A stretch of 64,000 nt of DNA from Escherichia coli (GTDB lineage: Bacteria > Pseudomonadota > Gammaproteobacteria > Enterobacterales > Enterobacteriaceae): the NCBI RefSeq assembly GCF_003334305.1, contig NZ_QOWS01000019.1; one strand, 5' to 3'. Made by a program: the position numbers and the translations under genes. The number at the start of each line of letters is the position of its first letter. Position 1 is the first letter of the stretch. Shown here one piece after another: positions 54,150 through 55,830 of this stretch. The notes beneath the pieces were generated by a model. That model was not told the origin of the DNA. It was given only the letters and a program-made list of their open reading frames with translations, and made no database searches.

Positions 54150-54419
54150 AGATACATTGCACCCTGTAAGACTGGCGGCTGGCGCTTTATGACATGAACG
54201 GTTGTAACCTTATGGGGAAGTCCATTGTAGTTAAATGTGGATAAGCAAATTTCCCCGTCTGTGAGGCGTGTTTTGTATCAAAAACAGGAGGGACCGGATG
54301 CACCTGAAGGTGGATGATGAGGTTGTTTTTTGTATGCGGTGCTGTTTTTTTGTTCGCTGACAGGCTTCAGGCGTGCAGATGCCTCCGGTGCGGGCCGGAT
54401 TATTCAGAGGAGGTCACTT
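54150..54419. other. RepFIIA origin region (oriR) with DnaA box
   Basis: Lies immediately downstream of the repA1 stop; TGTGGATAA at 54235-54243 is the complement of the TTATCCACA DnaA box. Extent is approximate. Confidence 0.45.
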
Positions 54420-55277
54420 TCAGGGGGAAGCTGTGGCCAGCCGGCTGTAATTACGGTTACGTGACAGAATCATGCGCTCTTTCACACGACGCTCCACTTC
54501 GCGTTTTACCGCCTCACGATTGGCAGTGAAGCGCCCTTCCGAGATTTCACGCGTCAGCTGCCGTTTCACCAGGGTGACGATATCCTGACGTTCCCTGTTC
54601 GCATCACGACGCGCACGGGCACGCTTTATTCCACGGGACTTAAGCTCTGTCTGGTAACTGCGGAAACGCTCACGCACAAAACGCCAGGCTTTCGCTATCA
54701 GTTCATCCATACCCAGGGTATCCAGTCCCTGCTTTTTACGCTGTCTGTTTTCCCATTCAACACGACTGCGGCGCGCAGCAACCACTGCATCCTCAGACAC
54801 ATCAAGGGCGGCAAATAGCGCCGGTGTGAACGTGATATCGGTCGGAATGTAGCACCCGATAAGCGGATCATATTCCGTCTGGTAGGTAATCAGTCCCAGC
54901 TCTGCAAGGAACGTCAGGGCTCGGGTGGCCCGGGTGATGGAGAGTTTTCCGGCAGCAGACTCCGTCGCCAGTCCGCACTCAATGGCCAGCGTAGTGATGG
55001 AGCACTGGACGCGGTTGGCCAGCGGGTCATAGTGAAAACACAGCCCCTGCAGCAGCGCATCAATGGCCCGGCGACGCAGTACCGGTGGCATGCGCCGACG
55101 CAGTCCCTTCGAACGGGCATGTGCCACATGAATGGCGAAATCAAAACGGGAGGTGAAGCCCACCGCCTTTTCCATCAGTTTTTCGCAGAACTTCAGCGTT
55201 CCGGCACCTTCACGGGGTGTGAACACCGGATTCGGGTTCTTTACCTGGCGGTAATACGTTTGTTGAAGATCAGTCAC
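54420..55277 (-). CDS. repA1: RepA1, RepFIIA replication initiator
   Basis: Recognised as IncFII RepA1; start set at the GTG giving 285 aa (the ORF is open to 55289). Confidence 0.9.
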
Positions 55278-55361
55278 ACCATCCTGCACTTACAATGCGC
55301 AGAAGGAGTGAGCACAGAAAGAAGTCTTGAACTTTTCCGGGCATATGACTATACTCCCCGC

Positions 55362-55458
55362 ATAGCTGAATTGTTGGCTATACGGTTTAAGTGGGCCCCG
55401 GTAATCTTCTTCGCAGTCGCCAAACTTGACGAAGATTATCGGGGTTTTTGCTTTTCTG
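55362..55458 (+). ncRNA. copA: CopA antisense RNA controlling repA1 translation
   Basis: Sigma70-like promoter (TTGAAC at 55327, 17-bp spacer, TATACT at 55350) on the strand opposite repA1, ending in a hairpin followed by TTTTTGCTTTT. Ends are approximate. Confidence 0.5.
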
Positions 55459-55569
55459 GCTCCTGTAAATCCACATCAGAACCAGTTCCCTGCCACCTTA
55501 TGGCGTGGCCAGCCACAAAATTCCTTAAACGATCAGTAATCTAGCATGCTACGACACAAAGTAAAGTCT

Positions 55570-55830
55570 TTACTTTAGTATATCCAGTCTCTGCAGTTCA
55601 TCTTTGATAATTTTCTCAATGAACTGAGCCTGTGTTATCCCCTCTCTCTCGCAGTACTCAACCATGAGATCTTTCAGAGGATTTTTGACAAAAACTTTTA
55701 TCTCTTTGTGTGTAAGACGTTTTCTTGCAACAGCGGCCATTTGTTTCTCAGAGTCAGTCATAGGCTTACCTCTGCGCACAAACCGCTTTTGACTCAATGA
55801 GGAAGTCACTGCATTTTCTGTCTGCGACAC
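55570..55830 (-). CDS. repA2: RepA2/CopB, transcriptional repressor of repA1
   Basis: 86-aa ORF upstream of repA1, recognised as CopB. Confidence 0.85.

Follow-up and report, generated by a model that had tools for sequence, protein, structure and literature searches.

A predicted complete IncFII-family basic replicon accompanied by RepFIB in a ColV-type plasmid stretch of Escherichia coli

We analyzed a stretch of 64,000 nucleotides of Escherichia coli DNA (contig NZ_QOWS01000019.1 of assembly GCF_003334305.1, hereafter the window) and found that an interval near its right end, at about 54 to 56 kb, very probably (at roughly 95%, judging from the sequence) represents a complete basic replicon of the IncFII family (RepFIIA type) with the arrangement copB-CopA-tap-repA-ori, its elements standing far above chance. 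All of the parts are present, in the expected order, intact and homologous to known counterparts. A second intact replicon, RepFIB, is located near the other end of the window. The module is a textbook, ordinary IncFII copy-control unit of an already known kind and advances no open question; the value of the analysis lies in annotation, as it marks the window as part of a ColV/ColIa virulence plasmid that resembles pS88 and has two intact replicons, and it fixes the coordinates of the copy-control elements.

Layout of the IncFII-type unit

Reading of positions 53400-57000 and listing of their open reading frames placed the entire unit on the minus strand, CopA excepted. In the 5' to 3' direction of that strand, an 86-codon frame (55830-55570) is followed by a 225-bp non-coding stretch, a 24-codon frame (55344-55270), a frame of 285 or 289 codons (55277 or 55289 to 54420), a spacer of about 175 bp, a perfect DnaA box and an AT-rich stretch. 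The three frames, corresponding to copB, tap and repA, all exceeded the cut-offs of curated NCBIfam models and CopA exceeded the Rfam gathering score. Within the 64-kb window, repA, copA and ori of this unit each occur once. The features of the unit are as follows.

54057-54244 (left end approximate), minus strand: origin (oriR-type) with a DnaA box, a presumed RepA-binding stretch and an AT-rich region
54245-54419, minus strand: repA-origin spacer ('CIS' region of R1/R100), 90.9% identical to the R100 equivalent
54420-55277, minus strand: repA (repA1), IncFII initiator of 285 aa with a GTG start; TIGR03474, 584.5 bits against a cut-off of 446.9 (equivalog, 275/275 model positions)
55270-55344, minus strand: tap (repA6), 24-codon leader peptide identical to R100 Tap; TIGR03475, 60.6 bits against 35.05
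55327-55355, plus strand: copA promoter TTGAAC-17 nt-TATACT, inside tap on the opposite strand
55362-55453, plus strand: copA, antisense RNA CopA of about 90 nt; RF00042 over the whole model (1-92), 99.4 bits for a gathering score of 60, E=1e-17
55538-55574, minus strand: candidate PrepA and CopB operator region; -35 TTTACT at 55565-55560, 16-nt spacer, -10 TAGATT at 55543-55538
55570-55830, minus strand: copB (repA2), 86 aa, by analogy a probable transcriptional repressor of the repA promoter; NF010256, 139.9 bits against a cut-off of 87
55709-55717, minus strand: one-mismatch DnaA box TCTTACACA inside copB, identical to 'DnaA-box8' of MiniR1-1 and lying within an exact match to an R1 primer region
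55831-55926, minus strand: region expected to hold PcopB, the constitutive copB promoter, placed by homology

The frames of copB, tap and repA are full length, with neither frameshift nor insertion. RepA is identical to R100 RepA1 at 275 of 285 residues and matched a second model as well (NF010313, 623.7 bits against 478). Two in-frame GTG codons could serve as its start, one at 55277 and the other 12 nt upstream at 55289. The coding sequence assigned by the Prokaryotic Genome Annotation Pipeline (PGAP) in records identical to the window starts at 55277, and positions 55258-55277, which include that GTG, are an exact match to GTGACTGATCTTCAACAAAC, a primer used for cloning repA of R1. The segment GTGACTGA contains both the repA GTG (55277-55275) and the tap stop codon TGA (55272-55270), the overlapping arrangement that would be expected for translational coupling. 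An initial annotation of positions 54150-55830, made from the sequence without database searches, had named copB and a repA1 beginning at GTG, and both assignments held. It had also called the control circuit complete; the elements that it listed are indeed there, but tap, which is likewise part of the circuit, was missing from its list.

Downstream of repA, the spacer corresponds to the CIS region, which in R1 has a role in the cis-action of RepA. It leads to the perfect DnaA box TTATCCACA at 54236-54244 on the minus strand, 175 bp past the repA stop codon and one of three perfect boxes in the 64 kb, where 0.42 would be expected. The 195 bp starting at this box (54050-54244) are 96.9% identical to R100, and A+T content rises to 73-83% between approximately 54080 and 54159, with the AT-rich half of the origin at about 54088-54150. 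The R1 origin measures 188 bp, and its box is bound by DnaA only if RepA occupies the sequence directly downstream (PMC5883639). Since 188 bp counted from the DnaA box end near 54057, the origin probably reaches that far. The initial annotation had placed an origin region with a DnaA box inside its interval, and while the box does fall there, most of the AT-rich half is cut off by the left boundary at 54150, the origin extending about 90 bp beyond it. The functional unit is therefore better bounded at approximately 54057-55926 than at 54150-55830.

CopA and the predicted copy-control circuit

A strict promoter scan of 53900-55950 returned the copA promoter as its sole promoter-like site, the -10 hexamer of which ends 7 nt before the Rfam start of CopA. 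In the predicted fold of the RNA (-36.3 kcal/mol, z=-4.9), stem-loop I is short, stem-loop II is long and bulged and bears the hexaloop CGCCAA, and UUUUUGCUU comes after it. The complement of the RNA on the minus strand, within the repA leader, corresponds to the target CopT. The CopA RNAs of R100 and F adopt the same two-stem-loop fold in prediction and both match RF00042, that of F at the same score. Stem-loop II and the U-run would form the terminator that the initial annotation had proposed, and its claim of a CopA RNA with its own promoter and terminator agrees with these findings. A simple terminator scan did not have the CopA terminator among its three sites, probably because the bulged stem does not fit the rule of the scan; three sites compare with a mean of 2.3 in shuffled sequence, and they were disregarded.

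The two promoters expected on the minus strand were less apparent. In R1, a CopB-repressed promoter lies directly downstream of copB (PMC5717011), and the candidate at 55538-55574 is consistent with this position. Under relaxed sigma-70 rules it scores highest in the stretch between copB and copA. R100 and F share its -10 hexamer TAGATT, and both carry TTGnnn 17 nt ahead of it; its -35 hexamer and spacer belong to a short segment whose sequence changes with the copB allele. Two dyads could serve as CopB operators, AGTAAAG-A-CTTTACT (55574-55560, over the -35) and TAGCATGCTA (55551-55542, in the spacer). We infer from these features that 55538-55574 may hold PrepA with the CopB operator. A copB promoter is likewise known to exist in R1 (PMC5717011), and positions 55797-55926 are 99.2% identical to the R100 stretch upstream of and into repA2/copB.

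No feature of the sequence contradicts an IncFII-family replicon, yet several points weigh against reading the interval as a complete and working one. The strict consensus scan mentioned above reported neither PrepA nor PcopB on the minus strand; the relaxed rules gave only the weak PrepA candidate, with 8/12 consensus positions; and no sigma-70 consensus match for PcopB was found in 55831-55926 in either the strict or the relaxed scan. Furthermore, as far as the sequence shows, replication in the host could be driven by the IncFII-type unit or by RepFIB.

Transcription, repression, antisense inhibition and origin firing would be expected to proceed as in the R1/R100 literature, and the mechanism outlined here follows the descriptions of R1 (PMC5717011, PMC5883639). 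A constitutive promoter upstream of copB would produce a copB-tap-repA transcript. CopB would repress the second, stronger promoter PrepA just downstream of copB, leaving it active mainly at low copy number. The unstable CopA, constitutively made from the opposite strand, would pair with CopT in the repA leader by loop-loop 'kissing' and thereby block translation of the tap leader peptide. As the repA GTG overlaps the tap stop codon, repA would be translated only when tap is, so RepA synthesis would drop as the concentration of the plasmid, and with it that of CopA, rises. RepA would then act in cis: at the origin, some 175 bp past its gene, it would bind beside the DnaA box and open the neighbouring AT-rich region for unidirectional theta replication.

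We also observed two UUACU motifs in the copB-repA intergenic RNA of the minus strand (55560-55564 and 55535-55539). They overlap the proposed PrepA -35 hexamer and the end of the -10 hexamer, which might account for their conservation. In R1, the corresponding intergenic region contains two sites cleaved by the Kid toxin. A search of the window for a kis-kid/pemIK homologue found none.

Relationship to R100, R1 and F

For comparison with prototype plasmids, R100 and F were used as sequences, whereas R1 was compared only through the primer sequences printed in PMC5883639. Alignment with R100, which had been suggested as a check of the initial annotation, gave identities of 90.9-98.7% by segment (PrepA/leader 97.8%, copA 94.6%, tap 98.7%, repA 93.9%, in addition to the spacer and origin values given above) and supports the RepFIIA assignment. 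Overall, 94% identity to R100 extends over approximately 2 kb of the window, beginning shortly after copB and continuing past the origin. R100/NR1 shares the gene order and spacing (repA2-copA/incRNA-repA6-repA1-ori) and the same perfect DnaA box. Differences are found on both flanks: hha and a DUF2726 gene separate the nuclease gene from copB in R100, whereas in the window the nuclease gene abuts copB, and R100 has pemIK downstream of ori, where the window has a RelBE-like yacAB pair. The nuclease gene of the window, the thermonuclease-family gene yigB/nuc (55875-56336, minus strand), abuts the region upstream of copB, in which homology to R100 covers only 55797-55926.

Within copB itself the relationship is different. 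Homology to R100 at the DNA level is lost about 33 nt after the start of the gene and regained 24 nt past its stop codon (break at approximately 55546-55797), and the CopB protein is only 48% identical to that of R100 and 49% to that of F. In the PGAP annotation of the identical records, its product is named 'replication regulatory protein RepA', and the products of the other two frames are given as RepA and Tap. Positions 55708-55737 match the R1 copB primer region exactly over 30 nt; since this R1 sequence comes from inside copB, the gene matches the R1 allele over that stretch. The match includes the one-mismatch DnaA box, and mutation of its counterpart, DnaA-box8, led to a higher copy number of MiniR1-1 (PMC5883639). 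R1 thus matches exactly at two places, inside copB and over 20 nt at the repA GTG start, while its DnaA-box1 region shows 5 mismatches in 39 nt relative to the window.

The RepFIC unit of F/P307 has a homologous copB-copA-tap arrangement. The regions of the PrepA -10 and leader and of PcopA and the 5' part of tap are 97-98% identical between F and the window, and the whole copB-tap stretch is 80% identical. In contrast to the complete unit of the window, that of F is cut by a transposon right after tap.

The copA alleles differ in a confined manner. CopA of the window is separated from that of R100 by 4 substitutions and 1 inserted base, and from that of F RepFIC by 6 substitutions and 1 indel. 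Every one of these changes maps to upper stem-loop II, those relative to R100 being adjacent to the loop, and the three RNAs agree in stem-loop I, in the loop CGCCAA and in the lower stem. Variation of this sort is well known from IncF plasmids, in which copA alleles determine incompatibility specificity. The unit could nevertheless share the specificity of R1/R100, such that its CopA would cross-inhibit those plasmids; identity to R100 amounts to 91-99% across its leader, tap, repA and ori, and the CopA loop and stem-loop I are the same. We consider this quite improbable, because the changes are concentrated in upper stem-loop II, and 3 mismatches in the specificity loop of pEK499 copA were sufficient to evade displacement by an FII copAB cassette (PMC6961859).

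The naming of the unit had to be considered as well, since typing by MOB-suite, as distributed with PLSDB, assigns the 100%-identical record NZ_CP104522.1 to IncFIB and IncFIC. Accordingly, the unit might be RepFIC of the F/P307 type and not RepFIIA, all the more as RepFIC and RepFIIA are homologous with a common architecture and one ColV paper names the unit 'repFIIA-repFIC'. We found this unlikely. The F-type copA and copB alleles of RepFIC were not those of the window, as judged from the copA changes relative to the F remnant and from CopB identity. The copB-tap stretch is much more distant from F than the 2-kb segment is from R100. The FIC typing primers, the sequences of which were verified as present in F, were absent from the window at up to 3 mismatches, while the FII and FrepB typing primers matched perfectly. 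Over the 262 columns of the FII typing amplicon, the window is nearer to R100 (96.6%) than to F (95.8%). As a separate observation, the same PLSDB-distributed typing labels the prototype IncFII plasmid R100 (NC_002134.1) 'IncFIA', and labels from that field are unreliable for this reason. An 'IncFIC' label overriding RepFIIA was rejected on the basis of the allele-level comparison, the primer checks and this mislabelling.

From the sequence comparison, the unit is best filed as IncFII-family (RepFIIA-type) with its own copA allele, which appears to be neither classical RepFIC nor the R1/R100 allele that defines classical IncFII incompatibility. The replicon represents a known kind of mosaic, combining an R100-like leader, tap, repA and ori with a copB that matches R1 over 30 nt and a copA stem-loop unlike those of R100 and F. 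Mosaicism of IncF replicons and allele-based typing are already established concepts. The copA allele is useful for plasmid typing and for predicting compatible IncF plasmids. It is a long shot that this combination of alleles confers incompatibility and regulatory specificity distinct from all characterized IncF prototypes; if true, this might help to explain the ready coexistence of pS88/ColV plasmids with other IncF plasmids, an incremental gain.

RepFIB and the plasmid context

The initial annotation had described the plasmid as multi-replicon, with RepFIB about 50 kb away, and we arrived at the same view: an intact RepFIB is located approximately 51.5 kb from the IncFII repA, which makes the plasmid multi-replicon. 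The features of this second replicon are listed below.

1615-1623: perfect DnaA box at RepFIB
1733-1785: further inverted copies of the RepFIB repeat core, upstream of repA
1991-2968, plus strand: RepFIB repA, Rep_3-type iteron-binding initiator of 325 aa; Pfam Rep3_N, E=1.2e-10
2994-3236, plus strand: RepFIB iteron-like direct repeats with the core ACAGCTTATAT, a five-copy family downstream of repA

The NCBIfam models gave no match to the RepFIB initiator, which was identified by Pfam and by DNA identity to F. The 2331-bp block at positions 1370-3700 shares 97.0% identity with the RepFIB region of F, and pS88 annotates the same gene as RepFIB replication protein. The replicon thus comprises a Rep_3-type RepA with flanking repeats and a DnaA box, homologous to RepFIB of F.

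The presence of two replicons allows for a scenario in which RepFIB alone maintains the plasmid and the IncFII-type unit, although intact, is silent or redundant, much as F uses RepFIA and carries a dead RepFIC remnant. Multi-replicon IncF plasmids often rely mainly on one replicon, and the transposon-cut unit of F offers a homologous precedent. In the window, on the other hand, every part of the unit is full length and undisrupted, the module is 100% conserved across many independent ColV plasmids, and transcripts of repA1 and repA2 from pS88 are measurable by reverse transcription PCR (table in PMC3438092). Taken with this evidence, a silent unit seems very improbable.

Conservation of the module is indeed extensive. 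The 2001 bp of positions 53900-55900 recur at 100% identity in pS88 (NC_011747.1) and in at least 24 further E. coli plasmids, which come from poultry and human extraintestinal infections, and at least 3676 plasmid records hold at least 80% of the 2-kb module. The neighbours of the unit in pS88 are the same as in the window: finO, yigA, yigB, repA2 (CopB), repA1, yacA, yacB and yacC. Genes elsewhere in the window include iss, iroBCDEN, cvaABC/cvi, those of colicin Ia and the tra genes, a content that identifies it as part of a ColV/ColIa virulence plasmid. RepFIIA and RepFIB are given in the ColV literature as the two replicons of these plasmids (PMC2626276).

Several additional observations were made on the structure of the window. 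It is collinear with NZ_CP104522.1 at 99.9% identity except for two indels of insertion-sequence size, one of about 1 kb present only in the window (25765-26760) and the other, of about 1.2 kb and annotated as ISKpn26, present only in the record (at window positions 22791-22794). The start of the window lies approximately 2 kb upstream of the RepFIB repA of NZ_CP104522.1. A 546-bp repeat with 94.9% identity links positions 53110-53655 (the yacB 3' end, yacA and the upstream region) with 41052-41585, located beside the colicin V export genes. The former copy adjoins the IncFII origin; the latter, where a related record annotates a second yacA, is accompanied by no copy of repA or ori. This yacA/yacB repeat may be left over from an earlier recombination event or from the flank of a second replicon.

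Matches to other RNA families were detected outside of the replicon. The AS-pc02 family 'Antisense to pHK01_099' (RF02876) was found at 56440-56622 on the plus strand (195.7 bits against 40), opposite a small open reading frame (56519-56731, minus strand) between finO and the nuclease gene. STnc490, a family of Hfq-binding small RNAs (RF01405), is present twice, at 17263-17386 on the plus strand (146.4 bits) and at 25751-25872 on the minus strand (90.8 bits). The two copies lie in opposite orientations about 8.4 kb apart, the second at the edge of the stretch that differs from NZ_CP104522.1. An ALIL pseudoknot (RF01497) was found at 10038-10154 on the plus strand (120.2 bits), where NZ_CP104522.1 annotates an IS3-family transposase. 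Similarly, the AS-traI antisense RNA family (RF02873) matched 60595-60671 on the plus strand (104.8 bits against 99), where the same record annotates traI on the minus strand.

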